Below, piece after piece: positions 12,432 to 35,400 of a DNA stretch of 37,328 nt; within the stretch, counting starts at the first letter, position 1; each line of letters begins with the position of its first letter. A model generated the notes under the pieces. The model ran no database searches, had not been told where the DNA came from, and saw only the letters and a program-made list of their open reading frames with translations. Source of the stretch: Patescibacteria group bacterium (lineage in GTDB: Bacteria > Patescibacteriota > Patescibacteriia > UBA9934). The DNA lies in assembly GCA_018896835.1 (NCBI GenBank), contig JAHILS010000078.1, positions 1-37,328 of the forward strand, given 5' to 3'. A program made the position numbers and the translations under genes.

Positions 12432-12440
12432 ATAGAAAGC

Positions 12441-18034: not shown

Positions 18035-20383
18035 TTAAAAAATCGTTTCGTCTTCTTCCTCTTCATCGTACTCTTCCTGCCCGTCCTCTTCAACGTCGGC
18101 CTGGTCATCTTCCGAATCTGGAGTATCGTTGTCCTCTACCGGTGTCCATTCGTCCTCATCCTGATCTTCATCTTGATCGTCATCATCATCCTCTACAATC
18201 TCATCGCTGACCTCTTGCCTTTGTGGTGCCTGATGATTATTCTCTGGCCACTGGCTAACAAGAATTTCTCGTGCTTTGGCGCCATTAGCCTCGCCAACGA
18301 CTCCCATTTGTTCCATTAAATCAATCATTCTGGCTGCTCGCGAATAACCGACCTTTAATCTTCTCTGCAAATATGAAGTCGAGGCCTTACCCGACTCAAT
18401 AACAACCTCAATTGCTTCATTTAACATCGGATCTGAATCTTCCGAAGAAAATGCCGTGCCACCTGTACGCATATCTTCTGTAACTTGATAGTTATAATCT
18501 GGCTCGCCTTGTTTTTTCAAGAAAGCAACAACCCGCTCTATTTCATCATCAGACACGAATGCTCCCTGCATGCGTTTTGGTTTGGAAATTTGTGGAGTAG
18601 TCAAAAGCATATCCCCACGACCCAACAATTTCTCTGCTCCGGCTTGGTCTAAAATTGTCTTGGAGTCAACTTGGGAAGCAACTGCAAAAGCAATTCGAGT
18701 TGGAATGTTCGCTTTTATAAGTCCAGTAATAACGTCAACCGATGGTCTTTGGGTTGCAAGAATAAGATGGATGCCGGCCGCTCGCGCCATTTGCGAAATT
18801 CTCACAATCACAGCTTCAACATCACGCTTATTTTGACTCATTAAGTCTGCCAACTCATCAATAATAATAAAAATCTTTGGCATTCTGTCCTTACACTTGG
18901 CATTATAGGAATCAATATCGCGCGTTCCTGCCTTTGCTAGGTGATCAAGGCGACGCTCCATTTCTCGAACCGCCCACTTCAAAGCGTTTATCGCTTCCTC
19001 GACTTTTGTGATTGGCGGAATTAATAGGTGAGGAATGCCAGAATAAACCCCCATTTCCACCCGTTTTGGATCAACCATGATGAGCTTTAGGTCGTCTGGC
19101 CCATTTTGATATAAAAGTGAAAGAATAATTGTATTTAAACAAACTGATTTTCCCGAACCAGTCGCTCCAGCCACAAGCATGTGAGGCGCCTTATCGACCG
19201 CAACAATATTAACGCCACCGCTAACATCTTTTCCAAGAGGTGCGGAAAAATTTGTTTTGCGAGTTTTAAATACTGTTGAATCAATAAGTTCACGCAAGCA
19301 AACCTGACCAACTTTTTGGTTTGGAACTTCAACTCCTACCAAGGAACGACCAGGGATCGGAGCCTCAATTCGAATTGGATGGGCGGCGAGTGCCAGCGCT
19401 AAGTCGTTATGAAGGGCAACAATCCTAGAAAGTTTTACCCCCTCGGCTGGGCGCATAGCATACTGAGTAACTGTTGGTCCAACCCGAACGTCCACCACCT
19501 CAACTTCAATCCCAAAGTTCTCAAACGTTCTTCTGATCACTTCTTTGCCACGTTCAATATCACCAGACTTACCATCACTTCCGTGTTCTTGTAGTAAATC
19601 TAGTGGTATCTCCACTTTTCGACGGCGCTTGCTGGTCATTATCGATTCTGATTCTACCTCTTGATCTGGATCGCCAAGGCGATGCTTTGATTCTGGTGTT
19701 TCAATTTCAACCGCCTCTTCTTCAACCACTCCTTGTTCGCCCTCGCGATCGTCAACATACAAAACATTATCGTCATCCTCGTGTGGCTTACGTATAAATT
19801 GTCCAAGCGAAATAAAATGAGCAGGTACTGTCAAAACGCTTTGTAATGAAATATCAAAAATCAGAATAATCGAAATACAAAGGACAGCAAAAACAATTAC
19901 AAACGATCCCCAAAAACCAAGCGAACCCACAAGAAGTTCGGAAACAAGCATGCCTGCATAGCCACCAGCCTTTGATAACTCAACTACAGTAAAATTTTCG
20001 TTTAATAAAAACAGGTTTAGCAACCCGTTAAATGCAATAAAAAATAATGCTATGCCTATATAATTTACCGGACCAAATACTCCTTTGCTGGGAAAAATAA
20101 CATGCCAAGCAACAATGAGAATAACTATTGAGAACAACCACCTATCCCATCCTAATGCTTGTGCAAGCAAATTATCAACATAAGTTCCTGTCCCGCCGGC
20201 AAGAGCAAAAAATGAAAGTAGGAAAAAAGCAGAAATTGCCACAAGTGCAATCGCAATAATACTCTGTTTTACTCCGTCAGAAAGCCCTGAATTACTTCTA
20301 GTTGAGCCTCCGTGTTTACGTTTTCGTTTTCGTGCCATAGCAGTAATTATTCTATCATATTTACGTTTTGCTTCCCACGCCAT
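18035..20383 (-). CDS. ftsK: DNA translocase FtsK/SpoIIIE
   Basis: 782 aa with N-terminal TM helices, Walker A VAGATGSGKSV, Walker B IIIDELADLM and a gamma wHTH (ASTSYLQRRLKVGYSRAARMIDLME). An acidic tail of about 70 aa follows. An alternative start is at 20338. Confidence 0.93.
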   Translation of the reverse strand: MAWEAKRKYDRIITAMARKRKRKHGGSTRSNSGLSDGVKQSIIAIALVAISAFFLLSFFALAGGTGTYVDNLLAQALGWDRWLFSIVILIVAWHVIFPSKGVFGPVNYIGIALFFIAFNGLLNLFLLNENFTVVELSKAGGYAGMLVSELLVGSLGFWGSFVIVFAVLCISIILIFDISLQSVLTVPAHFISLGQFIRKPHEDDDNVLYVDDREGEQGVVEEEAVEIETPESKHRLGDPDQEVESESIMTSKRRRKVEIPLDLLQEHGSDGKSGDIERGKEVIRRTFENFGIEVEVVDVRVGPTVTQYAMRPAEGVKLSRIVALHNDLALALAAHPIRIEAPIPGRSLVGVEVPNQKVGQVCLRELIDSTVFKTRKTNFSAPLGKDVSGGVNIVAVDKAPHMLVAGATGSGKSVCLNTIILSLLYQNGPDDLKLIMVDPKRVEMGVYSGIPHLLIPPITKVEEAINALKWAVREMERRLDHLAKAGTRDIDSYNAKCKDRMPKIFIIIDELADLMSQNKRDVEAVIVRISQMARAAGIHLILATQRPSVDVITGLIKANIPTRIAFAVASQVDSKTILDQAGAEKLLGRGDMLLTTPQISKPKRMQGAFVSDDEIERVVAFLKKQGEPDYNYQVTEDMRTGGTAFSSEDSDPMLNEAIEVVIESGKASTSYLQRRLKVGYSRAARMIDLMEQMGVVGEANGAKAREILVSQWPENNHQAPQRQEVSDEIVEDDDDDQDEDQDEDEWTPVEDNDTPDSEDDQADVEEDGQEEYDEEEEDETIF

Positions 20384-20385
20384 TA

Positions 20386-20414
20386 TTTACACAAGTATAA
20401 CAATACGATAACGT
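20386..20414 (+). promoter_or_regulatory. Putative promoter of the PP2C cassette
   Basis: TTTACA (20386-20391), a 17-nt spacer, then TAACGT (20409-20414). It sits in the AT-rich junction immediately before the GC-rich ORF. Confidence 0.4.
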
Positions 20415-20435
20415 ACCTGCGGACTCTAACCGATC

Positions 20436-21230
20436 ATGGAGGATCACATGAAACTCGAATTCGGAATGATGTGTGGTGAGGGTGGACGTTGCCACAACGA
20501 AGACATTGGCGCAATTTTTACTCCAGCCATGCTCTTTGTTGCCATAGACGGCATGGGCGGACATGAGGGCGGAGAGATCGCCGCCGCTATGGTGTACGAA
20601 GGATTTCGAGCCTTAACGCACCAAGATCCGGGTCTTGCTCTGCTGTGCCAAACAGCCGAGGCAATCAATGCCAGAATGTATGCCATGAACACCGAATCTG
20701 CCAGCCAAGACGAGAATCAAGGCGGGCGATATCGTGGCATGGGCGCAGTCGTAACAGCAATTTGGTTTGACCTTGATAGTGAGGTCTACCATCTGCACCA
20801 CGTGGGCGACACCAGGGCATACGAGTATATCGATGGACGGCTCACGCTGGTGAGTGATGACCACTCATTGTCATGCGTCAAAGCCTTGTCTGAACGGGAA
20901 CGTCAAAAGCACAGGCTAAAAAATATCGTCACATCGAGCTATGGTGCGCGAGAAGGCTTCGAGCACATGCTCGCAACCACATACAGAATAGTAGAAGGAA
21001 TGACTATTCTGCTCTGTTCTGATGGTCTCACCGATTACGTTGACCCAGACGTGATGGAAGCGATCATAGCCAACGACATGGGCGCGCAGAAAAAAGCCGA
21101 GGCGCTCTACCAGTCGGCTATGGACGCTGACACCTGCGACAACGTCACAATCATCGTCGTCCACGTAATGCCTGAGGATCGTGACTGCAAAACAAGGTCA
21201 AACAGTGCCACACTCTGTCCGATCGAATAA
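20436..21230 (+). CDS. PP2C-family Ser/Thr protein phosphatase (high-GC cassette A)
   Basis: Motifs RCHNED, DGMGGHEGGE, GDTRAY, SDGLTD and DNVT appear in canonical PP2C order. GGAGG precedes the internal ATG at 20448, which may be the true start. Confidence 0.85.
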   Translation: MEDHMKLEFGMMCGEGGRCHNEDIGAIFTPAMLFVAIDGMGGHEGGEIAAAMVYEGFRALTHQDPGLALLCQTAEAINARMYAMNTESASQDENQGGRYRGMGAVVTAIWFDLDSEVYHLHHVGDTRAYEYIDGRLTLVSDDHSLSCVKALSERERQKHRLKNIVTSSYGAREGFEHMLATTYRIVEGMTILLCSDGLTDYVDPDVMEAIIANDMGAQKKAEALYQSAMDADTCDNVTIIVVHVMPEDRDCKTRSNSATLCPIE

Positions 21231-21245
21231 TGTACGTCCACGTTG

Positions 21246-21272
21246 TCCCCACCCAGCACTCTGCGGTGGGGA
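21246..21272 (+). terminator. GC-rich hairpin after the PP2C gene
   Basis: TCCCCACC-loop-GGTGGGGA lies 16 nt after the stop. The T-tract is weak (TTACTG). Confidence 0.45.
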
Positions 21273-21534
21273 TTACTGCATAAAATTACGATACTAGGAT
21301 CACTACTTAAACATCCCACTACCCCTCTAGGAGAGCTTTTTGCATTTATCGAGGGCAAGCCATAATTTTTTATGACGTTGACACAGGCTAATTTTTCTTA
21401 TGAGGTTGCTTTCGCACAACCCGCTCCTTGGAAGGAGAACCAGATGATGCGAAAGCAAAAGACGTTTATTATGGTGAGTAGCATGGGTGAAATGAACCCT
21501 ACCGGTGCCTGACCCCAGAAACCCCAGAAACATA

Positions 21535-21574
21535 ATTTGCCACATAGTGCGCGATCGGACACTTTATGGCTAAA
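21535..21574. repeat. Degenerate copy of the CGATCG-core palindrome (family 2)
   Basis: ATTTGCCACATAGTGCGCGATCGGACACTTTATGGCTAAA matches the 30070-30109 palindrome at 32 of 40 positions by my hand alignment. Confidence 0.6.
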
Positions 21575-21612
21575 ATAAACAAACAGCCACTAGGCCGAGG
21601 TCGAAAAAATTA

Positions 21613-21681
21613 GGGTCAAGGCTCTATTTTTCAAAAATTGATCAAAAAATTGATCAAAAAGTAATAACTCGAGCCTCGACC
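21613..21681. repeat. Degenerate relative of the 15928-15987 hairpin, with an AT-rich tandem repeat in its loop
   Basis: 5' arm GGGTCAAGGCTCTA resembles GGGTCAGGGCTCTA, and 3' arm GAGCCTCGACC resembles GAGCCCTGACC. The loop carries CAAAAATTGAT/CAAAAAATTGAT in tandem (21632-21654). On the minus strand it is followed by TAATTTTTTCGA. Confidence 0.5.
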
Positions 21682-21689
21682 TTAAACAC

Positions 21690-21715
21690 AAAACAACCTC
21701 GTGGGAGGTTGTTTT
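21690..21715 (-). terminator. Rho-independent terminator of efp
   Basis: AAAACAACCTC-gtgg-GAGGTTGTTTT is a perfect 11-bp stem, 8 nt beyond the efp stop. T-rich sequence follows on the minus strand. Confidence 0.75.
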
Positions 21716-21723
21716 GATAATGA

Positions 21724-22290
21724 TTATTTATTTACGCGCTCAAGGTACACTCCTTCTTCTGTATTAACCTTGATTGTGTCGCCCTGGTTAATGAAAATTG
21801 GCACGCGAACCTTAAGACCATTTTCCATTATTGCATCCTTTTGAACATTTCCCGAAACTGTATCACCTTTTGATGCTGGCTCGGTTTGCGCAACAACGTA
21901 TTCAATTTTTATTGGAATATCTACTGCAATTGGATTACTTTCGTGCATCACGACCGTTGCGTCTATTCCCTCTTTCAAATACTTTGCGCAATCTCCAACT
22001 ATTGCTTCGTCAATGGATACTTGTTCAAAAGTCATTCCATCCATAAAATTATACTGACTACCTTCCTGGAAGATATACTGCATCTTCTTGTTCATTACGT
22101 CTGCAAACTTGAGGGTTTCACCAGATTTGTACGTGTTTTCAATTACTTTTCCAGTTGAAAGTGACTTCATTCTCACTCGGACAAATCCTCCGCCACGACC
22201 TGATGAAGAACGTGTGTAACTAAGCACAACCCAAAGATCGTCTTTTTCGCTTATTACAGTTCCACGCTTAATATCGGTTGGACCTGGCAT
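21724..22290 (-). CDS. efp: Translation elongation factor P
   Basis: 188 aa, colinear with EF-P across three OB-like domains. The C-terminal block is VPIFINQGDTIKVNTEEGVYLERV. Confidence 0.95.
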   Translation of the reverse strand: MPGPTDIKRGTVISEKDDLWVVLSYTRSSSGRGGGFVRVRMKSLSTGKVIENTYKSGETLKFADVMNKKMQYIFQEGSQYNFMDGMTFEQVSIDEAIVGDCAKYLKEGIDATVVMHESNPIAVDIPIKIEYVVAQTEPASKGDTVSGNVQKDAIMENGLKVRVPIFINQGDTIKVNTEEGVYLERVNK

Positions 22291-22301
22291 AATACTTGAG
22301 T

Positions 22302-22538
22302 TTATTTGTGAACAAATGGAAGAAGGGCCATGATGCGAGCGCGCTTGATCTCTTGAGAGACTTTGCGTTGATGCTCAGAACAAACTCCACTTCTTTTACA
22401 TGGAACTATTTTTCCAAATGAGGAAATATAACGTCGCAATAAATCTGTATTTTTGTAATCAATCACAGCATCCTTATTAACACAGAAAAAACAGTAACGT
22501 GAATTTTCCTTTTGTTTCATTGTTGTTATTTTTGACAT
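22302..22538 (-). CDS. rpsR: 30S ribosomal protein S18
   Basis: 78 aa with CFFC...IDYKNTDLLRRYIS...GKI.P.R.SG.C..HQR, typical of S18. Confidence 0.95.
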   Translation of the reverse strand: MSKITTMKQKENSRYCFFCVNKDAVIDYKNTDLLRRYISSFGKIVPCKRSGVCSEHQRKVSQEIKRARIMALLPFVHK

Positions 22539-22539
22539 A

Positions 22540-22974
22540 CTAGAATGGGATATCCTCTAATTTAATTTCATCATTGGCTGATGGTACGTTGATGATTGGG
22601 GCTGAGGCGTCAGGTCCTGATCCAAAACTTGTTGAATCGCCTTTTCCGCCCAGCATCACCATATTTTCCGCTACAATTTCTGTTCGATAACGCTTTACTC
22701 CATCTTGACCTTCCCAGTCGCGAGTTTGCAAACGTCCTTCTACAAAAATCTTATTTCCTTTTTTCAAGTATTGGTTGATTATTTCAGCCAATTTTCCCCA
22801 AGCAACTATATTATGGAATTCTGTTTGTTCTTGTTTCTCTCCACTGGCATCCTTCCAAGTTCTGTTTGTAGCCACTCCAAAAGAACAGACCGCCTGACCA
22901 CTTCCAGTCTGGCGAAGCTCTGGGTCTCGAGTTAGATTCCCAATAACCATTGCTTTGTTTAGTGATGCGCTCAT
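22540..22974 (-). CDS. ssb: Single-stranded DNA-binding protein
   Basis: 144 aa with an OB-fold N-terminus (LNKAMVIGNLTRDPELRQT...TEFHNIVAWGKLAE) and an acidic C-terminal tip LEDIPF. Confidence 0.95.
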   Translation of the reverse strand: MSASLNKAMVIGNLTRDPELRQTGSGQAVCSFGVATNRTWKDASGEKQEQTEFHNIVAWGKLAEIINQYLKKGNKIFVEGRLQTRDWEGQDGVKRYRTEIVAENMVMLGGKGDSTSFGSGPDASAPIINVPSANDEIKLEDIPF

Positions 22975-22975
22975 A

Positions 22976-23452
22976 TTAGATATTGGTTAAGTCTGAATCT
23001 AAAATGTCGTTGAGCTGTTTGTCCAAATCCTCGGCTCCTAGCTTTTCTGTGGCAATAACCGGTGATTGAGCCTTCTTAGCTCGTGGCTCTTTTTTAACAG
23101 CAGTACGCTTTCCTTCTGGAGATAACGGTTCTTGGTATGAAGTTGGCGTGAATGTCATGGAAGGAATTCCTTCTGGTCGCTTCAACACAGAATGTCGCAA
23201 GATGTCTTCACTAAGACGAAAATCTTGATCGATCTTCTGCAGGTTTGAACCGTCATGCTCAATATAAGTCAAAATATACGTTCCGTGACGTACCTTTTTG
23301 ATTGGGTAAGCAAGCTTAAGTTTTCCAAGGTTTTTTGTTTCCTGGACCTGGGCACCAGCGGTTTGGAGCGATTTTGCAACACGCTCAGTCACTCCATCGA
23401 TCTCAGAATCTGAGAATTTTGAAGGAATGATATATAAAATCTCGTAGATCAT
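22976..23452 (-). CDS. rpsF: 30S ribosomal protein S6, with a C-terminal extension
   Basis: 158 aa with N-terminus MIYEILYIIPS...KLAYPIKK..HGTYIL. It is the first gene of the rpsF-ssb-rpsR arrangement. Confidence 0.92.
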   Translation of the reverse strand: MIYEILYIIPSKFSDSEIDGVTERVAKSLQTAGAQVQETKNLGKLKLAYPIKKVRHGTYILTYIEHDGSNLQKIDQDFRLSEDILRHSVLKRPEGIPSMTFTPTSYQEPLSPEGKRTAVKKEPRAKKAQSPVIATEKLGAEDLDKQLNDILDSDLTNI

Positions 23453-23510
23453 ATTGATAGGCCTCTTTCTAGGAGGCAGCCTCTCGGCTACGGACTATTT
23501 ATGAGTTAAT
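23453..23510 (-). promoter_or_regulatory. Possible rpsF leader hairpin sequestering the SD
   Basis: The minus-strand leader ...GGCUGCCUCCUAGAAAGAGGCCUAUCAAU-AUG can pair CCUC with GAGG, which is the SD. Confidence 0.25.
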
Positions 23511-23600
23511 GCCCAGATAGTAGCCGATTGGCTGGTTTTGGTCAAGATTTCATACTCTTTTTGGTCAAAATCATATTGACTATGATATTGTTTCATCACT

Positions 23601-24764
23601 ATGCAAACCTTTGCCATTTTAGGATCACACTCGCGTCTAAGCCTTGCTGAGCTTAAGGCTGTTACTAAAACTGATATAAATAAGAGTTCTGATCAGTCGG
23701 CTGTATTTGAATATAATAAAGACTTACTTCACTTGCAAAATAAGCTCGGTGGCACGCAAAAGCTTGGCGAAGTGTTGGGAAGTGTTAAAGATGCCCAAGA
23801 AATTGAGGCTCATTTGCTAGCCATACTTAAAGATCAAGTTGGTGACAATAAGCTACGCTTTGGAATTAGTGTATACGATCTTGGTGACACTAAACGCACA
23901 AAAGAACTTCAAAAATTCATGCTTAAAGTGGGAATAAATTTAAAGAAAACAATTAAGCAGTCTGGAAGGTCGGCTCGATTGGTTACTGCCAAAGAACCAA
24001 CACTTTCAACTGTTGTTGTCGCAAAAAATAAACTCATAAGCGACGGGGTTGAATTTGTCATTATGGTTGGTGGCTCTGAAATTCTAATTGGCGTTACAAA
24101 AGCTATCCAAGACTTTGAAGACTGGTCACATCGTGATTATGACAGACCGGCACGCGATGCTAGGTCAGGAATGTTACCACCAAAACTTGCCAGAATGATG
24201 GTGAACTTAGCTGGAGTTGATCCAAAAAACTCTTACTTGCTTGATCCTTTTTGCGGATCAGGAACAATTTTAATGGAAGCATCACTTTTGGGATTTGATA
24301 ACGTGATTGGATCTGATATTTCAAAAAACGCCATTGATGATACTCGTGAAAACTTACAGTGGCTTATTGATCAAAATTATCCAGTAGCTGACCACACGCT
24401 CATCTGCTCATCGGCTGACTTTATGAGCGACAAGCTAGATAATAATCTAGTTGACGTCATCGTAACCGAACCATTTTTAGGAAATCCTCGTTCTGGCAGA
24501 GAGCAAGAAATCGAAATCACCCGTGGCATCAAATCACTATCTGATTTATACGAATCATCTTTTTTGGAACTTGATAAAATTTTGCGACCTGGAGGAAAAA
24601 TGGTAATTGCCTCGCCGATACACTTTATAGATGATAAAGAATTTCCAGTTCCAACCATAGAAATCATGGAATCGCTCGGCTATTCTTTAGAACACGAACC
24701 AATGCTTTACAAACGCGAAACTCAATTTGTCGGCAGAAACATTCTCATTTTTGCAAAAAAATAG
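23601..24764 (+). CDS. SAM-dependent methyltransferase, UPF0020/Trm11-RlmL-like (probably RNA)
   Basis: 387 aa with SAM motif I LDPFCGSGTILMEA, DIS in motif II and a VTEPFLG motif IV-like block, preceded by an N-terminal THUMP-like region. Confidence 0.7.
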   Translation: MQTFAILGSHSRLSLAELKAVTKTDINKSSDQSAVFEYNKDLLHLQNKLGGTQKLGEVLGSVKDAQEIEAHLLAILKDQVGDNKLRFGISVYDLGDTKRTKELQKFMLKVGINLKKTIKQSGRSARLVTAKEPTLSTVVVAKNKLISDGVEFVIMVGGSEILIGVTKAIQDFEDWSHRDYDRPARDARSGMLPPKLARMMVNLAGVDPKNSYLLDPFCGSGTILMEASLLGFDNVIGSDISKNAIDDTRENLQWLIDQNYPVADHTLICSSADFMSDKLDNNLVDVIVTEPFLGNPRSGREQEIEITRGIKSLSDLYESSFLELDKILRPGGKMVIASPIHFIDDKEFPVPTIEIMESLGYSLEHEPMLYKRETQFVGRNILIFAKK

Positions 24765-24785
24765 GCTAATTTTAGCATCAAGGGG

Positions 24786-24814
24786 TTGACACAACCTCTT
24801 TTTTGTGTTAACTT
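24786..24814 (+). promoter_or_regulatory. Putative promoter of cassette B
   Basis: TTGACA (24786-24791), a 17-nt spacer, then TAACTT (24809-24814). GGGAG lies 6 nt before the ATG at 24874. Confidence 0.5.
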
Positions 24815-24873
24815 TTCATGTCCTTTTTGTACTTTCTTCAGTGTCTCAATCCAACCAAACAGAGGGAGTCAGC

Positions 24874-25995
24874 ATGAGGAACATCCTCAACGTCATCCGT
24901 CAAATCTCGATCAATGTCTGGCACGGGATGTGCCGGTGGACCCCTGTGGTGGCTTCGGCCATCTGGGCGTTCACTGCAAAGTGGACGCCGGTCGTCTGGT
25001 CATACGCGATCATCGTGATCGTCTGGATCGGACGAGCCCTCTGGAGCACCACGAAATTCGTGGGCCGGCTCATCCGGACCACTGCAATCAATCCCATGCG
25101 CCAGAACACCAAAGTCTGGCTCTTCGGGAACATCTGGGGCGCAATCTTCTGCGCTCTGATGGTGACGGGATTCACCATCTTCTACGGACCGGTGGAAAGC
25201 CCAGTGCCAGAAGGCCCTGACATCGGTGGTGTTGACATCGATCCACCAGTGAAGCCTGGCGAGCCTGCCGTATGTGGCGACGCATGCGTCAAGGAAATTC
25301 GCAATTCGCGCTCAAAGCTCCGTGGCATCGAGAAAGAAGAATTGCGATATGTCCTGGAGGAATACAATAGCTACGTAGCGTCCGAGACCTGGCGCCAACG
25401 CGCACAGTCATGCCACCAGAACTACTGGGAGCACTTCCAGAAGGCAGAGGAGATCACGCTCTACCCGAGCGAACTCCTCGCTGGCAAGGCTTTGATCGAG
25501 GGCGCTGGATGCAAATTCATTACCGCAACAAACGGCGACGGCGGGATCGGGCCAATGCAGATCACACACCCGGTATCTGGCCACATCAACGCCACCGCAC
25601 GACTGCTTGGCACCACAAGCGACGGCGTGCAGTACAGGAGCGACTATCTGCACAACGTGCTCCTGGGCGCTGTCATGTTCTCGGACTTCGAGGACATGTT
25701 CGGAAGTCGTGGCGTTGGGATTCTCGCCTACAACCGCGGACCTGGAAATGTCCGCAGGGACATGCGACGCGCGGGACTCAACAGCTATATGCGTCGTGTG
25801 ATCTCCGACTTCCGTGGCGGAATCCCGGAGCATGCTGGAAAAGGTGGCCGCCCTCGCGTATATGCGGACAAGGTTCTGGCCGGAATGGTCATGATGTACC
25901 GTGTCTCGCATGGGCTTCCGCTCGAACCACTCACCAAGCTAACACTCGACGACATTCCTGGTGCGGATCCATCGCAAGATGGAAAGGATCGCTAG
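24874..25995 (+). CDS. Membrane-anchored lytic transglycosylase (SLT-domain) protein (high-GC cassette B)
   Basis: N-terminal hydrophobic segments are followed by SLT motifs in order: ALIEGAGC (catalytic Glu context), GGIGPMQIT and ILAYNRGPGN. The ORF track starts at 24805, but the promoter and SD favour 24874. Confidence 0.7.
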   Translation: MRNILNVIRQISINVWHGMCRWTPVVASAIWAFTAKWTPVVWSYAIIVIVWIGRALWSTTKFVGRLIRTTAINPMRQNTKVWLFGNIWGAIFCALMVTGFTIFYGPVESPVPEGPDIGGVDIDPPVKPGEPAVCGDACVKEIRNSRSKLRGIEKEELRYVLEEYNSYVASETWRQRAQSCHQNYWEHFQKAEEITLYPSELLAGKALIEGAGCKFITATNGDGGIGPMQITHPVSGHINATARLLGTTSDGVQYRSDYLHNVLLGAVMFSDFEDMFGSRGVGILAYNRGPGNVRRDMRRAGLNSYMRRVISDFRGGIPEHAGKGGRPRVYADKVLAGMVMMYRVSHGLPLEPLTKLTLDDIPGADPSQDGKDR

Positions 25996-26007
25996 GAAAC
26001 TACTCAA

Positions 26008-26036
26008 CCCCCGACCGCACTGCGGATCGGGGGTTT
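26008..26036 (+). terminator. GC-rich rho-independent terminator of cassette B
   Basis: CCCCCGACCGC-act-GCGGaTCGGGGG is followed by TTT, 13 nt after the stop. Confidence 0.65.
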
Positions 26037-26134
26037 GCGCTATTAATCGTATAGAATTTTAGGATTTAAAATAATATGAAAGCATAATTCTAGTATAATC
26101 TTAGTTGCCGCGCAGAATATTAATTACTGATTAG

Positions 26135-26170
26135 TGGCTCACTTTGGGCCGATCGGACCAAAGTGAGCCA
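26135..26170. repeat. 36-nt CGATCG-core palindrome, family 1, copy 1
   Basis: TGGCTCACTTTGG-G-CCGATCGG-A-CCAAAGTGAGCCA has 13-bp arms and one G/A mismatch. It is identical to 26732-26767 and ends 18 nt before the ATG at 26189. Confidence 0.9.
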
Positions 26171-26188
26171 TAGTTAAAATAAACATCT

Positions 26189-26710
26189 ATGAAATCAAAA
26201 TTTCTTAAATCAAACTCACAAACAACTCGTCTTCTAATTCGTATAGGAGATGGGTTGGAGAATATTTGTTTCACACTTGAGAACTCTCGTCTAGTTATGT
26301 CAGTAGGTATAGATGATGCAAGGACTATATTATGGCGTCGCGAACAGACAAGGATAAGAAGAACGATGCGCCAACTGAAGGAAAAAAAACTAATTAAGGT
26401 CAAAAAAGTAGGAAATAAGTACAATGTACTGCTGACAGATGAAGGCATGATCGAATACCTCCATCACAAACTTATTGATTGTAATGAGTTTGAAGACGAC
26501 CAAGTCACCATGGTGATATTTGATATACCAGAGACTCAAAGACAGGTACGAAAACAATTACGTAGGTTTCTTGAAGAAGCATGTTTTATGCCGATTCAAA
26601 AAAGTGTTTGGATTTCAAAATTTGATTCAGGAGAAATATTGTCAAATTTTTTTCAATTAAAAGGTAGACAGAAATGGATCCGGGTATTTAAAGCTAAAAG
26701 ATTATCTTAA
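26189..26710 (+). CDS. Winged-helix plus Cas2/PaaX-C-like ferredoxin-fold protein (PaaX-like regulator family suspected)
   Basis: 173 aa. The N-terminal half contains a recognition helix and wing (IRRTMRQLKEKKLIKVKKVGNKYNVLLTDEG). The C-terminal half, VTMVIFDIPETQRQVRKQLRRFLEEACFMPIQKSVWIS...WIRVFKA, follows the b1-a1-b2 pattern of Cas2 and the PaaX middle domain. It is AT-rich like the backbone. Confidence 0.55.
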   Translation: MKSKFLKSNSQTTRLLIRIGDGLENICFTLENSRLVMSVGIDDARTILWRREQTRIRRTMRQLKEKKLIKVKKVGNKYNVLLTDEGMIEYLHHKLIDCNEFEDDQVTMVIFDIPETQRQVRKQLRRFLEEACFMPIQKSVWISKFDSGEILSNFFQLKGRQKWIRVFKAKRLS

Positions 26711-26731
26711 CAATCAGATTATCAACAAGAT

Positions 26732-26767
26732 TGGCTCACTTTGGGCCGATCGGACCAAAGTGAGCCA
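26732..26767. repeat. 36-nt CGATCG-core palindrome, family 1, copy 2
   Basis: Identical 36-mer lying between the stop of the 26189-26710 ORF and the stop of convergent ychF. Confidence 0.9.
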
Positions 26768-26816
26768 ATTGAATAAAATAACCCCACAAATTAAAACAAA
26801 AATCTTATACAAAGAA

Positions 26817-27893
26817 TCAAACCCCCACTCTAAAGTGACAAACGTCGCCGTCTTGCATGACATATTCTTTTCCTTCAACTCGTAGCTTGCCAGCTTCTTT
26901 GGCACCGACCTCGCCGTTATATTTTACAAAATCCTCATACTTAATTATTTCAGCCCGAATAAATGCTTTTTCAAAATCAGTATGGATTACACCGGCTGAC
27001 TGAGGAGCTTTTGAACCTTTTTGCACAGTCCATGCTCGTGTTTCTTTTTCACCAGTTGTTAAAAATGTGACCAAGTCCAGCATCTCGTAACTTTTTCTAA
27101 TTACCTGGTCTAGTCCCGATTCCCGCAAACCCAGTTCTTGCAAAAATTGTTTAGCATCCTCATCTGGCAATGACACAAGTTCGGCTTCAAGCTTTACAGA
27201 AATCGGAATTGCCATGCGCTCTATTCCAAAAGGTGACTGCCAATTACCAGCCTTGGCTGTTTGCTCGTCAACGTTGACAACGTAAAGAATTTTCTTGGTT
27301 GTGAGTAGTTGAATTTCCTTGAGCGCTTCTTGTTCTTTTTCTGTCAGCTCAACCGAGCTGGCCATTTTGCCTTGCTCGAGAGCTGTTTTGAACTTTTTTA
27401 AACCATCAACTTGTAAAAGTAAAAATTGATCTTTAGTACTTTTTGCTTTTGTTTCGATGGAATCGAGCCTACGATCTACGCTTGAGAGATCTGTCATTGC
27501 CAATTCCATTTCAATAATTTCTGCATCGCGTATTGGGTCGATGCTACCGTCAACGTGAATAATCTCTGGATCATGAAAGGCGCGAACAACGTGAACAATC
27601 ATATCTGTCTCACGGATGTTTGCTAAAAATTTATTACCCAACCCCTCTCCTTTATGTGCACCTTTTACAAGACCGGCAATATCCACAAACTCAATAGCTG
27701 TTGGGATGACCTTCTGTGAAGATGACATTTTTGCCAGCACAGAAAGTCGATCGTCTGGAACCTCGACAATCCCAACGTTTGGTTCAATCGTACAGAACGG
27801 AAAATTCGCGCAATCAACCTGCTTTTTAGTAAGCGCAGTGAAAAGCGTTGATTTACCAACATTTGGAAGTCCGACAATCCCTACTTTTAGCAT
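26817..27893 (-). CDS. ychF: Redox-regulated ATPase YchF
   Basis: 358 aa with the G1 motif GIVGLPNVGKSTLF and a C-terminal TGS-like block (VRAWTVQKGSKAPQSAGVIHTDFEKAFIRAE). Confidence 0.95.
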   Translation of the reverse strand: MLKVGIVGLPNVGKSTLFTALTKKQVDCANFPFCTIEPNVGIVEVPDDRLSVLAKMSSSQKVIPTAIEFVDIAGLVKGAHKGEGLGNKFLANIRETDMIVHVVRAFHDPEIIHVDGSIDPIRDAEIIEMELAMTDLSSVDRRLDSIETKAKSTKDQFLLLQVDGLKKFKTALEQGKMASSVELTEKEQEALKEIQLLTTKKILYVVNVDEQTAKAGNWQSPFGIERMAIPISVKLEAELVSLPDEDAKQFLQELGLRESGLDQVIRKSYEMLDLVTFLTTGEKETRAWTVQKGSKAPQSAGVIHTDFEKAFIRAEIIKYEDFVKYNGEVGAKEAGKLRVEGKEYVMQDGDVCHFRVGV

Positions 27894-27998
27894 ACGTCAC
27901 AAAGTCTACCTGATTTTGTGATTTTTTCAATCTCATCACCAAAAACCTCCGCTCTTAGAGGTTTAGTATTATAAAATTTTATCTTGGCAAATAAACGT

Positions 27999-28031
27999 AT
28001 AATTGACCTGTCAATTATATTTTGATAAAAA
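27999..28031 (+). promoter_or_regulatory. Putative promoter of cassette C overlapped by a 20-bp palindrome (possible operator)
   Basis: TTGACC (28003-28008), a 17-nt spacer, then TAAAAA (28026-28031). The palindrome ATAATTGAC-ct-GTCAATTAT spans 27999-28018. GAGG lies 6 nt before the ATG at 28071. Confidence 0.35.
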
Positions 28032-28070
28032 AGAAGCGGTTTCGATCACCCCCAAACCCATGAGGACACC

Positions 28071-28598
28071 ATGGATCACCTGATCATCGAAGAACTCCAG
28101 GCTTTCTTCTTCCGCGCCATGCTCCAGGGCTGGATCACGGGAAAGAAGGCCAAGCCGATCGAAGGCCTGCCTGGCTACAAGGGCTTCCGACACCAAGAGG
28201 ATGCGGGAGGGTACAAGCTCCTGCTCGTCGACGCCTGGTGTAGTGGCATGGACGACTACTCCTCCGGCTTCACCACGATCTACACCTCTCCCAAGGACAC
28301 CGACGACGGCAAGCCGATCTGGACTCCGGTCTGGACCATGAACTACATGGGTCACTACGATGAGGGGGAAATCATCGTCGTGATGGATGCGCTACGCCAG
28401 GCCTATCGTACCAGGCAATTCATCGGTGGCCGAGGACTAAACTCGGTCAGGTGTGGTAACTTGCGCTACTCCAACAGAACTGGTCATACGGCCTGCTTCG
28501 AATCCTTCGACGGCATCGAGCATGTCGAAAGTAGTAAACGCACTCCCGGCTTCCATGAATACTCCGGTGGGGTGCTCTTCGACCACAAGAAGAAGTAA
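28071..28598 (+). CDS. Hypothetical protein, DUF5680-like by pattern (high-GC cassette C)
   Basis: 175 aa. The spacing of conserved aromatic and Gly residues (W.MNY.G..., GGRG..., Y.N...G....F.G.E, Y.GG) resembles DUF5680 as I recall it. This was not verified. Confidence 0.45.
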   Translation: MDHLIIEELQAFFFRAMLQGWITGKKAKPIEGLPGYKGFRHQEDAGGYKLLLVDAWCSGMDDYSSGFTTIYTSPKDTDDGKPIWTPVWTMNYMGHYDEGEIIVVMDALRQAYRTRQFIGGRGLNSVRCGNLRYSNRTGHTACFESFDGIEHVESSKRTPGFHEYSGGVLFDHKKK

Positions 28599-28640
28599 GC
28601 GTCACCCAATTTCGTCATCCGTCCTTCGGGACGAGTCCGT

Positions 28641-28666
28641 GCCCTGCGCCACCACTGGCGCGGGGC
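28641..28666 (+). terminator. GC-rich terminator of cassette C
   Basis: GCCCTGCGCC-accact-GGCGCGGGGC is followed by TTATTGCTTTC. Confidence 0.6.
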
Positions 28667-28794
28667 TTATTGCTTTCAAATTATTTTTCATACTTTGGAC
28701 GATCGTCAACTTTATGAAAAATTTATTTTAGAAAAATGCCTATTATCCACATTATTGATGTTCGTATACAAAATACAGGATGATGAACGGTCGA

Positions 28795-28823
28795 TTGACA
28801 GATAGCATATTTACAGCTAATAT
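28795..28823 (+). promoter_or_regulatory. Near-consensus sigma70 promoter of cassette D
   Basis: TTGACA (28795-28800), a 17-nt spacer, then TAATAT (28818-28823). GGAG lies upstream of the ATG at 28892. Confidence 0.55.
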
Positions 28824-28891
28824 TTGCTATCAGCTCTTTCTCACTTCCATCAACGGTACACCGTCAGCGTACCAAACCTCCGGAGAACGCC

Positions 28892-30004
28892 ATGTCCTTC
28901 CTCATCGTCCTCTTCATCCTCATCGGTTCCATATTCGCGCAGGACCTGACGGTCATGCAGGCCCACAAGACCTACGGGCTCTTGGTGGCTACCGAGAGCT
29001 TCGCGGAGTCAGAGCTGTCGCGCCCGAATGCGACGGCCCTGTGCTCCAAGAACGTGCTGGCTCTCTACAAGTCCATGCCGTTCTCGCAGATCACCAACCT
29101 GTGCAAGCCAGAGGACGCCACCCGCGCCAGCATCCTGGCCTCGGCCAGGCAGATTCAGGAATGCGCCCAGGCGGGCGACACCGTCCTGTTCTTGTTCACT
29201 GGAATGGGCGTAGGTGGAGACTTTGGTGAGCCCATGTTGCTCACCTATGACTCTGCGTTCACTTCTGAAGCAATGGCAGGAACGTCCATCAGGATCGACG
29301 AGCTCACCTCTGTCCTGTCCAAGGACGGAGTGCAGATCATCATGCTGTTGGATGCGTCGCTCAACACCAAGTTCGACCTGGTGACTGACAGTGATCCGCA
29401 ATTGATGACCACCGCGGGCCCGATCGCATCGGACGTGCCGGGCAAATACCTGTCTCTCTCCTACGCACCCAGCGTTGGAGTATGGCCACAAGATCCCGAC
29501 CTGTTTGGCAACACGCTCGCGCACGCGCTCGGTGGCGCGGCCGATGCCAACAGTGACGACACGATCACGCCCGGCGAGATCAACCGCTTCATGGTCGAAC
29601 AGATCAACACCCAAACTGGGATGCCCCCGGGCGTGCGCGGTGAGTGGAGGTCGGCGACCGAACCGATCCTCACGCTCAAGCCAGAACAAGAGCTGGCGAT
29701 CGGGTTTCCCGAACCTCATTCGTGGCGACCGATGGTCTCGCCGACCGTAAAGCGCACGGCCATTATCAGCGGAGCGTCGATGCTCGCGATCGGCGGGGCG
29801 AGCTTCGCACTTTCCTGGCGGGCGCAGAAGTGCCTGGAGGAAGTCTGCTACCAAAACCGTGACGAGTACGACTCCGCGGTTTCCCAGCGCAATGCCTTCC
29901 TCTGGGTAACCAGAGGAGCAAGTACGCTCGGCGCAATCGGACTGGGCGGAGGTCTCGTCCTCCAACCCAACAGTGCCAGCTTGAGCCTCACGGCTCGCTG
30001 GTAA
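28892..30004 (+). CDS. Secreted, C-terminally membrane-anchored caspase-like (peptidase C14 fold) protein lacking the catalytic His/Cys dyad (high-GC cassette D)
   Basis: 370 aa with a signal peptide MSFLIVLFILIGSIFAQD. The caspase-domain layout is YGLLVA...DAT...GDTVLFLFTGMG...LLTYD...IIMLLDAS. The usual SGHG is TGMG and D(A/S)C is DAS. Two hydrophobic helices lie near the C-terminus. Confidence 0.5.
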   Translation: MSFLIVLFILIGSIFAQDLTVMQAHKTYGLLVATESFAESELSRPNATALCSKNVLALYKSMPFSQITNLCKPEDATRASILASARQIQECAQAGDTVLFLFTGMGVGGDFGEPMLLTYDSAFTSEAMAGTSIRIDELTSVLSKDGVQIIMLLDASLNTKFDLVTDSDPQLMTTAGPIASDVPGKYLSLSYAPSVGVWPQDPDLFGNTLAHALGGAADANSDDTITPGEINRFMVEQINTQTGMPPGVRGEWRSATEPILTLKPEQELAIGFPEPHSWRPMVSPTVKRTAIISGASMLAIGGASFALSWRAQKCLEEVCYQNRDEYDSAVSQRNAFLWVTRGASTLGAIGLGGGLVLQPNSASLSLTARW

Positions 30005-30022
30005 AATCGCACAAATAACTAC

Positions 30023-30047
30023 GCCCGACCTCCCCTGGAGGTCGGGC
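30023..30047 (+). terminator. GC-rich terminator of cassette D
   Basis: GCCCGACCTC-ccctg-GAGGTCGGGC is followed by GCTCATGTTTTC. Confidence 0.6.
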
Positions 30048-30069
30048 GCTCATGTTTTCTGCTAAAACT

Positions 30070-30109
30070 ATTTGCCATATAGTGTTCGATCGAGCACTAT
30101 ATGGCAAAT
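30070..30109. repeat. 40-nt CGATCG-core palindrome, family 2
   Basis: ATTTGCCATATAGTG-T-TCGATCGA-G-CACTATATGGCAAAT has perfect 15-bp arms. It lies between the cassette D terminator and the stop of the convergent TPR membrane gene. Confidence 0.9.
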
Positions 30110-30127
30110 TCTCAATCTGAAATTTAT

Positions 30128-32496: not shown

Positions 32497-35400
32497 TTAC
32501 TCAATTGATTCAGTGACTTGTTCTGGGGCTACTTCAACAGTTGGCTCAACAACATCTTCTTCAACAACAGCATCTTCAACAACGGCATCTTCAACAACGG
32601 CATCTTCAACAGCTTCTTCTTCAACAACATCTTCTTCTATAACTTCCTCCTGATCAATCTCAACTCCATCACCAACAACTATTTCATCTACAACCTCATC
32701 AACGTCGGTAATATCTTGACTCCTATCCTCTGTAATCACTTGATCAACCGGCTCATTAAAGATTTCAACAATATCCTCATCGACAATCTCAACATTTTGA
32801 TCAACGACGTTCTCCTCAATATTTTCTTCTTCCACCGCTATATTATCTTTTTCTACTTCAACATCTGGAGCGTAATCCTTATGATACGCAATTACCAGCC
32901 AATCAACATTTACACCATTAGTTTCAAGAGTATCCTTGATTATAAAGCCTTCCGAGTCTCTATTGATCGCATAAAGTGAACCAGATGGCGCATCGGCTGT
33001 CAAAAATACGCGGTAAGTAGAAAGATTATCAATTATTTTTTCAAAATTAGGGTCAATGTCCGCAAAAATTACATGCGCTCGACCATTCTGAAGCTTGATA
33101 GTACCGGAAAGCTCAATAGTTGTTTGTGGTGATACAACCGCATAAGCTTCTATTCGCTCTCCGCCATACGACTTAATATTTTGTACAAATCTGCCACCAG
33201 TCTTGATTGTCCCGTCCTCAGAAATTGACCAAACGTTACCAATCCCCGCGATCGATCCAACCGAAAGCAAACTTCCTCCACTCAAATTCACAATGCCAGA
33301 AAGATCAAGTGTGCTTGATGAGGCGACCTGAGTGATCGAATTATCAGAAAGGTCAGCACTTTGTCCATCAAAGTATGAAGGACGGACAAAAACAGAAATA
33401 GATCCGACTGTTCCCGAGAATGCTTCCATGGCATAACCAACAATTGGGCCAGACTCTGTCGCCTTCATGGCATAGCCTGGTTTGGATGAGGTTGTTAGCG
33501 GATCTCCAATTGAAATCGACCCGTTCTCATTACTGACATAGGTTGGAACTCGACCAGAAAGCGCAATTGGTACATGACCGTCAATATTATTTCCTGCTAA
33601 AAATCCGGGTTGAGTGGAAACAATGCCGGCAATTTTTGCGTCATAAGTAGTACCAGTTGATCGTTTTACCGAATCCTTACTGCTTGCAAACACCACAACT
33701 TCACCTGGCGCCACTGGCTCTGCGACTGGGAACATTTCGGCAAAGTCATATGAGCCCGATCCCCAACCAGACGCGTTAGTACGCATAAAATCTCCGCCAA
33801 GTCCGGAGGAACCATCGTAATAAATATATTTATCAGTCTGCAAAACTCCACGATCTGATGGATACAAACGACCCGAAATTGCCATGTCGCCGTCTTGATT
33901 TATAAATCCAACCTCTGTCTCACCCGTGTTTCTAAATGATAATTGATAGTTTGACGCGTCTGTCACACTATTTACAAACCCCATGGAAATATCCTGAGCT
34001 GATGCTCCGTCCCAGCCTGATCCGCGAAGCATTAGTCCATAGGAATTGAGTCCTGGCATAACCGCGTCAGCTGTACCTGTTGAGTCTAGTACCAAGTCTG
34101 TTCCGACCGATGTCATACTACCGTCTTGCGCTAAAACATTTATAGCCTGCCACTTTGGCTGAACATAGACATTAATTCTGCCAGTACCTGACAAGTGTGA
34201 CTCTAAAGCGCGACCAATCACATAACCAACTCCATTTGCCTTCATTACAACGCCCGGAGTTGAAGAAAGTGTCAGATAATCACCTGCCGTAATTGCGCCA
34301 CCTTCATCATTTACATTAATTGGAACCTGACCCAAAAGTGCTACCGGAACATACGCACCAGTCTCGCGCCAGCCTTCAAACCAATTTCCAATCACATTTG
34401 GAGATATAGAATATGCACCAATTATTTTGTCGGCATTGGAGGCTATAGTTGCGTTTCCTAATGAATCAATTCCTATTACATCACCATCTGAAAAATCCGC
34501 CATAACACCAGGAAATAACTCTGCATAATCACTTCCAGGAGACACAAGCGCAACGCCGCCACCAGTTCCTTCGATTGCACCTAATGGATCGCCACTGCCA
34601 TCTTTTAGCAATAAATAATTACATGCATCTGTAGGGTTTGAATCTAAGCAAGCCTGTATACTTATACCCATGTTTGTGTAAGCATTTCCGTCATTAAAGA
34701 AGCTAGCGATGTAATCGGTTGTGCCGAATGCAGAAACATACATAGCTTGCTGATCACCGACTTGATTTACATACAGGGAGTACCCCGTACCAGAGTTCGT
34801 TGTGTACAGGGTGTTACCGGTAGATGCACCGTCTCCCATACTCAAGCTAACAAGTCCTGTGCTTGCATTAATAAAATCGGTCGCGCTGTTATCACGAGAA
34901 ACATACACAGCACTTCCGGTTGTAAGAGTATCATTCACTATTGCTGTGATAAACCCGCCAGTCTGTCCGGTGCCATCAACTTCCAGTTGATCGTATACAT
35001 ACAAATCCCCTGATCCGGTTGAATAATTGGCGGTCGACGGCGTTGAACTATTTTCAACATGAACAGCCGATCCGAAAAAATATCCAGCATAATTATTTGT
35101 GCCACCCGACGCTGTGCCTCGCACTCCGTAACGATTAATACCGGCACTTTTGCTAGAAAAATCACCACCGTAGCCTGTTGTTATTGTGCCAGCACCGCTA
35201 CTGACCTCACCTTGAACACCAAAAGCGCTCGAAATCGTTCCGCCTGATGACAGGACTTTGCCATAAACACCAACAACAGTCGGTATGGTTGATCCTACCC
35301 CGCTATTATATGCCTCAGAATATAGGCCATACATCGTGTTTTCTATTGGAGATACAGCTGTTGATGAATTAATTGCGCGGATCTCCATCCCCTTCATTAT

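Follow-up and report, generated by a model that had tools for sequence, protein, structure and literature searches.

We analyzed a 37,328-nucleotide contig of a Patescibacteria group bacterium (GenBank assembly GCA_018896835.1, contig JAHILS010000078.1), hereafter the window, in which four genes that we call C1 to C4 stand out by their high guanine-plus-cytosine (GC) content from a backbone encoding UvrA, UvrB, RuvC, YebC, RpoC, RpoB, RecA, FtsK, EF-P, S18, SSB, S6 and YchF. A preliminary description of this DNA read the four genes as repeated acquisitions from a high-GC donor. We find that C1, C2 and C4 are very probably residents of the genome and not recent foreign cassettes, and that C3 alone is plausibly a recent gain. 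The genes are listed here with their overall GC and their GC at third codon positions (GC3); where a coding sequence (CDS) has two possible starts, both are given.

C1, CDS 20436/20448-21230, plus strand, predicted PP2C-type phosphatase: GC 0.52, GC3 0.57
C2, CDS 24805/24874-25995, plus strand, predicted SLT-domain transglycosylase: GC about 0.57-0.58, GC3 0.68
C3, CDS 28071-28598, plus strand, DUF5680-like protein: GC 0.56, GC3 0.75
C4, CDS 28892-30004, plus strand, predicted caspase-fold protein: GC 0.61, GC3 0.78
Other window genes: GC 0.34-0.45, GC3 0.28-0.41

The sliding GC profile has four steps, at the positions named in the preliminary description, and the per-gene GC and GC3 values agree with them. 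Two hand counts given there, 42 of 60 and 21 of 60 G+C, are exact, whereas the long overlapping open reading frames (ORFs) said to be exclusive to the GC-rich stretches also occur elsewhere in the window. The backbone averages about 0.42 in GC and about 0.34 in GC3, its genes spanning 0.39-0.45 and 0.32-0.41, respectively. Among 500-bp windows outside the four genes (n = 315), mean GC is 0.420 with a standard deviation of 0.029 and a maximum of 0.490, which places C1 to C4 between 3.5 and 6.5 standard deviations above the mean. Their shift lies chiefly at third codon positions, with second positions raised by 0.05-0.1 and first positions almost flat. The strand contrast that had been described stands in part: C1 to C4 are indeed on the plus strand, opposite the backbone, but so are a methyltransferase (MTase) gene of normal GC (23601-24764) and a PaaX-like gene of low GC (26189-26710). 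Among window ORFs of 100 aa or more, Pfam scans detected no integrase, transposase, recombinase or integron machinery, a repeat search of the window found no direct repeats flanking the GC-rich genes, and nothing in the window matches Rfam at gathering thresholds.

For comparison with relatives, we used the loci of the 80 best neighbors of YchF, about 20 kb around one locus each, labeled L001 and so on; counts for the caspase family cover 81 sequences, that is, the window and these 80 loci. Nearly all of the 80 are labeled Candidatus Uhrbacteria or Patescibacteria, and we therefore assign the genome to Candidatus Uhrbacteria. YchF of the nearest species (L001, L002 and L003) is 76-85% identical to that of the window. 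The comparison with close genomes for presence and absence, which the preliminary description had proposed, finds C1, C2 and C4 in synteny and only C3 to be species-specific. The products that it had named (a PP2C phosphatase, a transmembrane-anchored SLT protein, a DUF5680-like protein and a secreted pseudo-caspase) are upheld by domain scores, relatives and predicted fold.

By its domain matches, C1 is a PP2C-type serine/threonine phosphatase, with membership at the domain level only. It scores 26.8 bits against PF13672 (cut-off 24), and its match to the Stp1-like model NF033484, the Stp1/IreP equivalog, reaches E 1e-39 and 136 bits, under the cut-off of 230. Orthologues with 28-36% identity occupy the slot between ftsK and efp in L001, L002, L003, L084 and L087, and are GC-rich there too. 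The best homologues outside its own strain are 36-38% identical, the top one lying in the same slot of another Uhrbacteria-like contig, and the protein search found none closer than 38% outside the lineage. C2 is a predicted membrane-anchored lytic transglycosylase with an SLT domain (29.4 bits against PF01464, cut-off 21.3) and hydrophobic segments at residues 38-58 and 81-107. Its orthologues lie in the slot between ychF and the MTase gene in L001 (65% identity), L003 (51%), L004, L007, L013 and L044, and in seven sequences the GC3 of the SLT gene exceeds that of its own backbone by 0.20-0.46. No relatives of C2 were found in viral contigs or by tblastn in phage and plasmid collections, the only collections searched for this gene.

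The strongest case comes from C4 and its family. C4 has no Pfam match. Its AlphaFold model has a predicted local distance difference test (pLDDT) score of 78.7, and the top Foldseek matches in the PDB are MALT1 paracaspase, metacaspases and caspase-3, with E values from 2e-7 to 4e-5 and a probability of 1.0. In the alignment, a Met stands at the His position (TGMGVGG) and a Ser follows an invariant Asp-Ala (LLDAS), at the position of the presumed catalytic Cys; a Peptidase_C14 relative, P0011, likewise has Ser at the presumed Cys position. Given that the His/Cys dyad was not found, C4 would be a pseudo-enzyme or use other residues. Hydrophobic segments at residues 1-24 (signal-like) and 289-307 (a C-terminal membrane anchor) complete the picture of C4 as, on its predicted structure, a membrane-anchored caspase-fold protein without catalytic His and Cys. 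Relatives are scarce: a set of 5.8 billion proteins has about ten, which are Uhrbacteria-like wherever their genomic context is known, and viral contigs have none. One further relative, 29% identical, matches PF00656 (Peptidase_C14).

C4 orthologues occupy the slot between ychF and a TPR gene in L001, L002, L003, L084 and L087. Three BLAST clusters found in the slot beside ychF are joined by hhalign with probabilities of 99, 94 and 94%, compared to 0.1-0.2% for unrelated controls. Using a hidden Markov model of the family, we find that 26 of the 81 sequences have a caspase-fold member that adjoins ychF and is encoded on the other strand. In all 26, GC3 of this gene is above that of its backbone (mean +0.28, range +0.11 to +0.45; Wilcoxon p = 3e-8). 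Moreover, it moves with the backbone, whose GC3 ranges from 0.32 to 0.68 in these sequences, with a regression slope of 0.54; outside this set, in L087, backbone GC3 is about 0.25 and the caspase gene is at 0.50. Pairwise identities within the family follow those of the backbone (Spearman 0.61-0.72, compared to 0.77-0.89 among backbone genes themselves). Between the window and L083, the closest other species (77% protein identity), synonymous divergence (dS) is 0.88 for C4 and 0.80, 0.90 and 0.98 for its neighbors, and the ratio of nonsynonymous to synonymous divergence (dN/dS) of C4 is 0.15. Given these values, C4 has diverged together with its flanks under purifying selection and without a raised mutation rate.

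The composition of these genes also outlasts the sequence changes that would erase a foreign origin. Wherever C1, C2 and C4 have orthologues in L001-L003, L084 and L087, these are again GC-rich islands in a lower-GC backbone. At four-fold degenerate sites in conserved residues, identity between the window and L002, L003, L005 and L087 is near that expected from composition alone, in both ychF and the caspase gene. At this level of saturation between species, four-fold sites could no longer carry the signature of a donor; even so, GC at four-fold sites (GC4) is 0.44-0.79 in the caspase gene and 0.22-0.35 in ychF. Of the 77 loci with more than 3 kb of sequence, about 44 have GC-rich islands by a simple threshold. 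We conclude that C1, C2 and C4 are inherited largely vertically, that their protein sequences evolve fast and that their slots are occasionally emptied or given to another occupant. Their GC-richness is a gene-specific, maintained equilibrium rather than the trace of a donor. In this genome, unusual composition does not imply foreign origin, because C1, C2 and C4 are same-slot residents that are GC-rich throughout the clade.

To locate the excess, we combined 27 genes of the caspase family with 14 SLT and PP2C genes in a meta-profile. GC climbs above baseline about 30 nt past the start codon and returns to it about 60 nt past the stop codon, and the flanking DNA and neighboring genes are at or below baseline GC. 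Relative to the MTase gene on the same strand (21 loci), four-fold sites gain 0.12 in C and 0.13 in G, and two-fold sites gain 0.25 where the alternatives are pyrimidines (Y) and 0.30 where they are purines (R). As C and G rise equally, a codon choice specific to particular tRNAs is argued against, and translational selection for C-ending codons can be set aside because G-ending codons climb to the same extent against this control. Several other simple causes fail as well. Fast protein evolution or weak constraint is not the cause, as the genes of the TPR protein and the large surface protein evolve as fast and have the GC3 of the backbone; strand alone is not, as the plus-strand MTase gene is compositionally normal; and a raised mutation rate is not, as dS of C4 equals that of its flanks.

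We next asked whether the genes fold more strongly than their composition requires, comparing each gene in 150-nt windows with shuffles that permute its own synonymous codons. With a global shuffle, z is -5.5 for C4, -4.4 for C2, -2.5 for C1 and -0.4 for C3, and the window controls lie between 0 and -1. When codons are shuffled within blocks of 25, C4 has z -3.6, C2 -4.7 and C1 -2.9, with orthologues reaching -7.2; exceptions are the SLT gene of L003 (+0.7) and the PP2C gene of L002 (-0.7). In a wider survey, island genes (n = 60) have a mean z of -1.74, with 43% below -2, compared to a mean of -0.60 and 13% below -2 for backbone genes (n = 55; Mann-Whitney p = 3.6e-5). GC level alone does not make this signal, given that GC-matched backbone genes from GC-rich Uhrbacteria (n = 22) have a mean z of -0.34; the local-block shuffles point the same way. 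The excess is spread along the genes and is highest at nt 61-180 in C2, C4 and the C4 orthologue of L083; the latter two share a near-perfect hairpin over the same codons. Of the 60 surveyed island genes, 45 are antisense to ychF and the backbone and 15 are co-oriented with them.

C3 has a different history. It scores 24.0 bits against PF18931, just under the cut-off of 25. A HMMER search of a representative library returned 581 relatives, the best at 45% identity and the named ones from Parcubacteria/Patescibacteria. Relatives at 40-45% identity that were scanned score 30-39 bits, above the DUF5680 cut-off, and C3 is therefore placed in DUF5680 by transitivity. The AlphaFold model is very confident (pLDDT 94.8) and has an alpha-plus-beta fold without a significant match in the PDB (best E 0.05) or in a viral structure library, so we rejected any function drawn from the fold. 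Among the fetched loci, C3 occurs only as near-identical strain copies in L081 and, truncated, in L082; it is missing from the slot between ychF and the caspase gene in L002, L003, L084 and L087, and it has no relatives in viral contigs. Its presence lengthens the spacer between ychF and C4 from about 115-320 bp to about 1 kb. The closest relative of C3 sits on a contig of about 0.52 GC. GC-richness is not a trait of the DUF5680 family, given that the DUF5680 gene of one low-GC contig has backbone composition. C3 also lacks excess secondary structure (z -0.4 to -1.4). We propose that this species-specific gene is plausibly the one recent gain, which probably came from another, GC-richer genome of Patescibacteria type and was inserted between ychF and the caspase-fold gene. 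Within its 3' end (28466-28595), C3 carries nine substitutions in 130 bp relative to L081 and L082, which agree with each other; eight of the nine are transitions and most fall at third codon positions. A diversity-generating retroelement was considered for this cluster and discarded on account of that spectrum, the lack of a template repeat in 20-30.5 kb and the lack of a reverse transcriptase in the window.

The preliminary description took each of the four genes to be a complete transcription unit with its own promoter, Shine-Dalgarno (SD) site and terminator. The SD site and a GC-rich hairpin 3' of the stop codon, a putative terminator, are present in all four, but C4 alone has a good promoter; the promoter-like sites of the other three are weaker and stay below the threshold of the promoter scan. 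The SD sites are GGAGGA (C1), GAGGGAG (C2), GAGGA (C3) and GGAGA (C4). The first two bear on the choice of start codon. The ORF of C1 opens at 20436, and its true start is likely 20448 because the SD site precedes this position and L081 lacks an ATG at 20436. The ORF of C2 opens at GTG 24805, and its true start is likely ATG 24874, which follows the SD site and agrees with a gene call of 373 aa in L081. The elements around the four genes are as follows.

28003-28031, plus strand: promoter-like block 5' of C3, TTGACC...GATAAA, putative and below the promoter-scan threshold
28795-28823, plus strand: promoter of C4, TTGACA-17 nt-TAATAT (promoter scan, 10 of 12 matches)
21247-21271, plus strand: hairpin 3' of the C1 stop codon, CCCCACC...GGTGGGG, no T-run, putative terminator (read from the sequence)
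26008-26033, plus strand: GC-rich hairpin 3' of the C2 stop codon (read from the sequence)
28641-28666, plus strand: GC-rich terminator-like hairpin 3' of C3, followed by TTATTGCTTT (terminator scan)
30022-30048, both strands: bidirectional, GC-rich terminator-like hairpin between the convergent C4 and TPR genes (terminator scan)

The promoter block of C4 is kept as TTGACA-17-TAATGT 5' of its orthologues in L002, L003 and L084. The block upstream of C3 aligns with this conserved promoter block of the caspase genes in relatives.

The same region contains a family of intergenic palindromes of 34-40 nt with an invariant CGATCG center and arms that vary in sequence but stay complementary. They are listed here with the PaaX-like gene that two of them enclose.

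21538-21571: imperfect palindrome with CGATCG center in the C1-efp spacer, 9 of 14 arm positions complementary, paired with the 30071-30119 copy in the repeat search
26135-26170: perfect 36-nt palindrome TGGCTCACTTTGGGCCGATCGGACCAAAGTGAGCCA, 3' of C2 and 5' of the PaaX-like gene (repeat search)
26189-26710, plus strand: PaaX-like gene, winged helix and Cas2-like domain, GC 0.34 (PF20803, E 7e-14)
26732-26767: second, identical copy of the 36-nt palindrome (repeat search)
28683-28722: palindrome with CGATCG center, ATTTTTCATACTTTGGACGATCGTCAACTTTATGAAAAAT, between C3 and C4 (repeat search and palindrome scans)
30070-30109: palindrome with CGATCG center, ATTTGCCATATAGTGTTCGATCGAGCACTATATGGCAAAT, 3' of C4 (repeat search)

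All five palindromes fall within 21.5-30.1 kb, 3' of plus-strand genes, and none lies in the other 28 kb. Relatives have them at 2530-2563 and 3128-3161 in L001, 15296-15329 in L002, 8561-8594 and 14006-14249 in L003, and 13000-13033 and 18137-18170 in L084; the L003 copy at 8561-8594 and the L084 copy at 18137-18170 match the position of the palindrome 3' of C4. Of the 894 CGATCG sites in the loci as a whole, 24 are flanked by arms that are complementary at 10 or more of 14 positions, far more than chance would give. The PaaX-like gene is bracketed by the two identical copies in the window, and its orthologue in L001 by a different, near-identical pair (2530-3161). The window has the order MTase-SLT-PaaX-ychF, and L001 has the order MTase-PaaX-SLT-ychF. 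As both the order and the palindrome pair differ in L001, the PaaX-like module seems to have moved or been inserted independently. PaaX-like orthologues in L066 (4327-4876) and L076 (5024-5563) also adjoin a CGATCG palindrome. The palindromes could be terminators, operators or recombination sites.

Taken together, we think it somewhat more probable than otherwise that C1, C2 and C4 are resident, fast-evolving envelope and signaling genes held at a GC-rich equilibrium by a transcript-limited, gene-specific force, to which a recent, lineage-internal C3 has been added. For the nature of this force we have a tentative candidate: selection on mRNA structure or stability may keep C1, C2 and C4 GC-rich. 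Selection acting on the transcript would then favor GC-rich, strongly base-paired mRNA, and possible benefits are mRNA stability or a paced translation of envelope and signaling proteins. The finding that the genes fold more than their own synonymous-codon shuffles supports such selection without proving it. The broader proposal that Uhrbacteria keep a distinct class of genes, monocistronic, of envelope or signaling function, mostly antisense, made rich in GC and hairpins by selection on the transcript and conserved across the clade, strikes us as rather doubtful.

A number of observations weigh against this account. On the side of inheritance, which they suggest is not purely vertical, the SLT slot of L002 holds a LysM-type gene (GC3 0.87), and L084 and L087 have no SLT gene. 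By YchF (87% identity) and MTase (81%), L002 and L003 are sisters, yet their caspase genes are only 43% identical. The substitution cluster in C3 looks like a recombination tract imported from a more divergent C3 allele. On the side of RNA structure, the excess is not universal, as orthologues in L003 have z of +0.5 to +0.7, and it is only moderate, as 57% of island genes lie above z -2. The antisense strand carries the folding signal too, although usually more weakly; hairpins or quasi-palindromes formed at the DNA level are therefore a possible cause.

Alternative explanations differ in how much of this evidence they can accommodate. Under GC-biased gene conversion at recombination hot spots, fast-evolving envelope and signaling genes would recombine more and mismatch repair would be biased to GC. 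Lassalle et al. (2015, PMC4450053) reported elevated GC3 in recombining bacterial genes and explained it by GC-biased gene conversion, and our genes resemble that trend in that synonymous GC is raised gene by gene, symmetrically for G and C, to an equilibrium that here scales with backbone GC. The tract in C3 between near-identical strains, the turnover of slots and some phylogenetic discordance are also as this explanation would have it. However, both the effect (+0.2 to +0.45 in GC3) and its boundary at the CDS are much stronger here than in the genome-wide trend (PMC4450053). At a resolution of 30 nt, the excess is confined to the CDS and terminator, with no spill into the flanks that would be needed as homology arms. 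In addition, dS of C4 is that of its neighbors and its dN/dS is that of ordinary purifying selection, and excess secondary structure, which accompanies the GC excess here, is not predicted. We consider gene conversion an unlikely explanation. A local mutational bias, in which the genes are transcribed head-on to replication and transcription-replication conflicts or transcription-coupled repair alter their mutation spectrum, would fit the antisense orientation of most island genes and the limits of the excess at the transcript. Against it, the same-strand MTase and PaaX-like genes have normal or low GC, a quarter of the island genes (15/60) are co-oriented with the backbone, dS is not raised, and G and C rise symmetrically without strand skew, which makes this explanation decidedly improbable.

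Other explanations invoke transfer. The sharply atypical composition and codon usage, the self-contained units on the opposite strand and the species-specific C3, with its closest relative on a contig of about 0.52 GC, agree with the original idea of repeated acquisition from a high-GC donor, for example the host of an episymbiont, with the donor's composition retained. For C3 a gain is indeed plausible. For C1, C2 and C4 the idea does not hold: their syntenic orthologues in many Uhrbacteria are GC-rich relative to their own backbones, synonymous saturation would have erased a donor signature, and C4 shares the dS of its flanks. The offset moves with backbone GC and so matches no one donor, and the window lacks mobility genes, which speaks against both a high-GC host as donor and a cassette-capture process. 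The preliminary description had itself named homologues restricted to the same lineage as a sign against acquisition, and the homologues of C1, C3 and C4 are of the same lineage or remote, with at most 38% identity for C1 outside the lineage, only about ten relatives for C4, and C2 unmatched in the viral, phage and plasmid collections. We regard donor acquisition as very improbable. Exchange within the lineage, in which GC-rich modules would be swapped among Uhrbacteria with the CGATCG palindromes as recombination sites, by analogy with Xer/dif or attC, has more to draw on: within the 37 kb, the palindromes occur only 3' of C1, C2, C3 and C4, L002, L003 and L084 likewise have them behind GC-rich genes, and identical copies bracket a PaaX-like gene whose place relative to the SLT gene differs in L001; slot occupants also vary among genomes. 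Yet the window ORFs of at least 100 aa include no recombinase gene, the majority of GC-rich genes adjoin a palindrome at just one end, distances in the C4 family follow the backbone with dS equal to that of the flanks, the PaaX-like gene, which is low in GC, is the one module with clear palindrome borders, and the palindromes could equally be operators or terminators. Such a system is improbable as the source of the GC-rich genes. An assembly or binning chimera, in which high-GC fragments were mis-joined into a low-GC contig, has nothing but the compositional contrast to recommend it. Junction support had been proposed as the sign by which to recognize chimerism; two independent public assemblies, L081 (99.88% identical) and L082 (99.4%), jointly span and reproduce every junction of C1 to C4, and the same gene order with GC-rich occupants is found in dozens of independently assembled genomes. 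Chimerism is thereby excluded for practical purposes, with next to no chance left to it.

The resident, transcript-limited GC-rich genes that we favor can also be set beside known systems. They share with horizontally acquired islands a sharp step in GC and codon usage, accessory-type products (envelope and signaling) and some variation in presence and absence (C3, and SLT versus LysM). They depart from such islands in being GC-richer and not AT-richer than the core, in that C1, C2 and C4 keep their synteny between species and have diverged at synonymous sites as much as their flanks, in an offset that outlasts synonymous saturation and scales with backbone GC, and in the absence of mobility genes and flanking direct repeats from the window. 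Like integron cassettes and Xer/dif modules, they are single-gene units, mostly in one orientation, several with an imperfect palindrome at the 3' side; the PaaX-like gene alone lies between identical palindromes with a 6-bp center, which would be putative recombinase-binding sites, and its position is shifted in L001. Unlike integrons, the window has no IntI recombinase domain (ORFs of at least 100 aa) and no array, the units have their own SD site and terminator-like hairpin (and in C4 a conserved promoter), and housekeeping operons lie between them. Unlike cassettes, the GC-rich genes behave as vertically inherited.

The bacterial caspase homologues, orthocaspases and Peptidase_C14, provide the closest comparison for C4, whose modeled structure has the caspase/paracaspase fold (Foldseek probability 1.0). 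Catalytically inactive forms of these homologues exist. C4 differs from the active caspase homologues in its His-to-Met and presumed Cys-to-Ser replacements, its N-terminal signal-like segment and its C-terminal membrane anchor, and in belonging to a fast-evolving family that is so far found only in Uhrbacteria-like genomes, fixed beside ychF.

Horizontal gene transfer is most commonly called from atypical composition, and it is on this basis that many islands have been reported in published surveys of Patescibacteria. Our findings suggest that such calls could be inflated in Patescibacteria, as what look like clean foreign cassettes here are old residents. If the class of GC-rich genes considered above is real, composition-based detection of transfer would systematically mislabel its members in genomes of the candidate phyla radiation. 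Our literature search turned up no account of a persistently GC-rich class of genes in Patescibacteria. The question raised is what has kept a few envelope and signaling genes 0.2-0.45 higher in synonymous GC than the remainder of a small genome for so long; that the excess ends sharply at the limits of the transcript and comes with extra base-pairing suggests selection on the RNA. Two new targets for study also emerge, namely a membrane-anchored caspase-fold pseudo-protease, as predicted, of an uncultured group, fast-evolving and fixed beside ychF, and a family of CGATCG-centered palindromes linked to a PaaX/Cas2-like gene.

The PP2C genes show further variation among relatives. In L084, they are duplicated in tandem (9019-10762). 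The spacer between C1 and efp in the window (21231-21723) is 493 bp, compared to 60-200 bp in L001, L003, L084 and L087; in addition to its CGATCG palindrome, it holds a 22-codon ORF with a good SD site (GGAAGGAGA, ATG at 21444, end at 21512) and has no Rfam match. In loci L030-L042, a family of serine/threonine protein kinase genes (for example, L034 14198-15922) has raised GC3 (median +0.11), and several members show excess secondary structure. This hints that the kinase family and the PP2C gene are a signaling pair belonging to the GC-rich class.

L002 has GC-rich occupants of other kinds at 11880-12770 and 14616-15230: the LysM-type protein in the SLT slot and a signal-peptide protein between the methyltransferase gene and rpsF. 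The window and L082, although nearly identical, differ by a 15-bp in-frame indel at 32570-32584, within the gene of the large surface protein. Finally, many records with the Uhrbacteria gene order and YchF identities of 66-79% are titled "uncultured Gammaproteobacteria bacterium" (L002, L008, L009, L011, L012 and others), and single records with this gene order carry the names Kapaibacterium, Vicinamibacterales or Acutalibacteraceae; all of these titles look mistaken.

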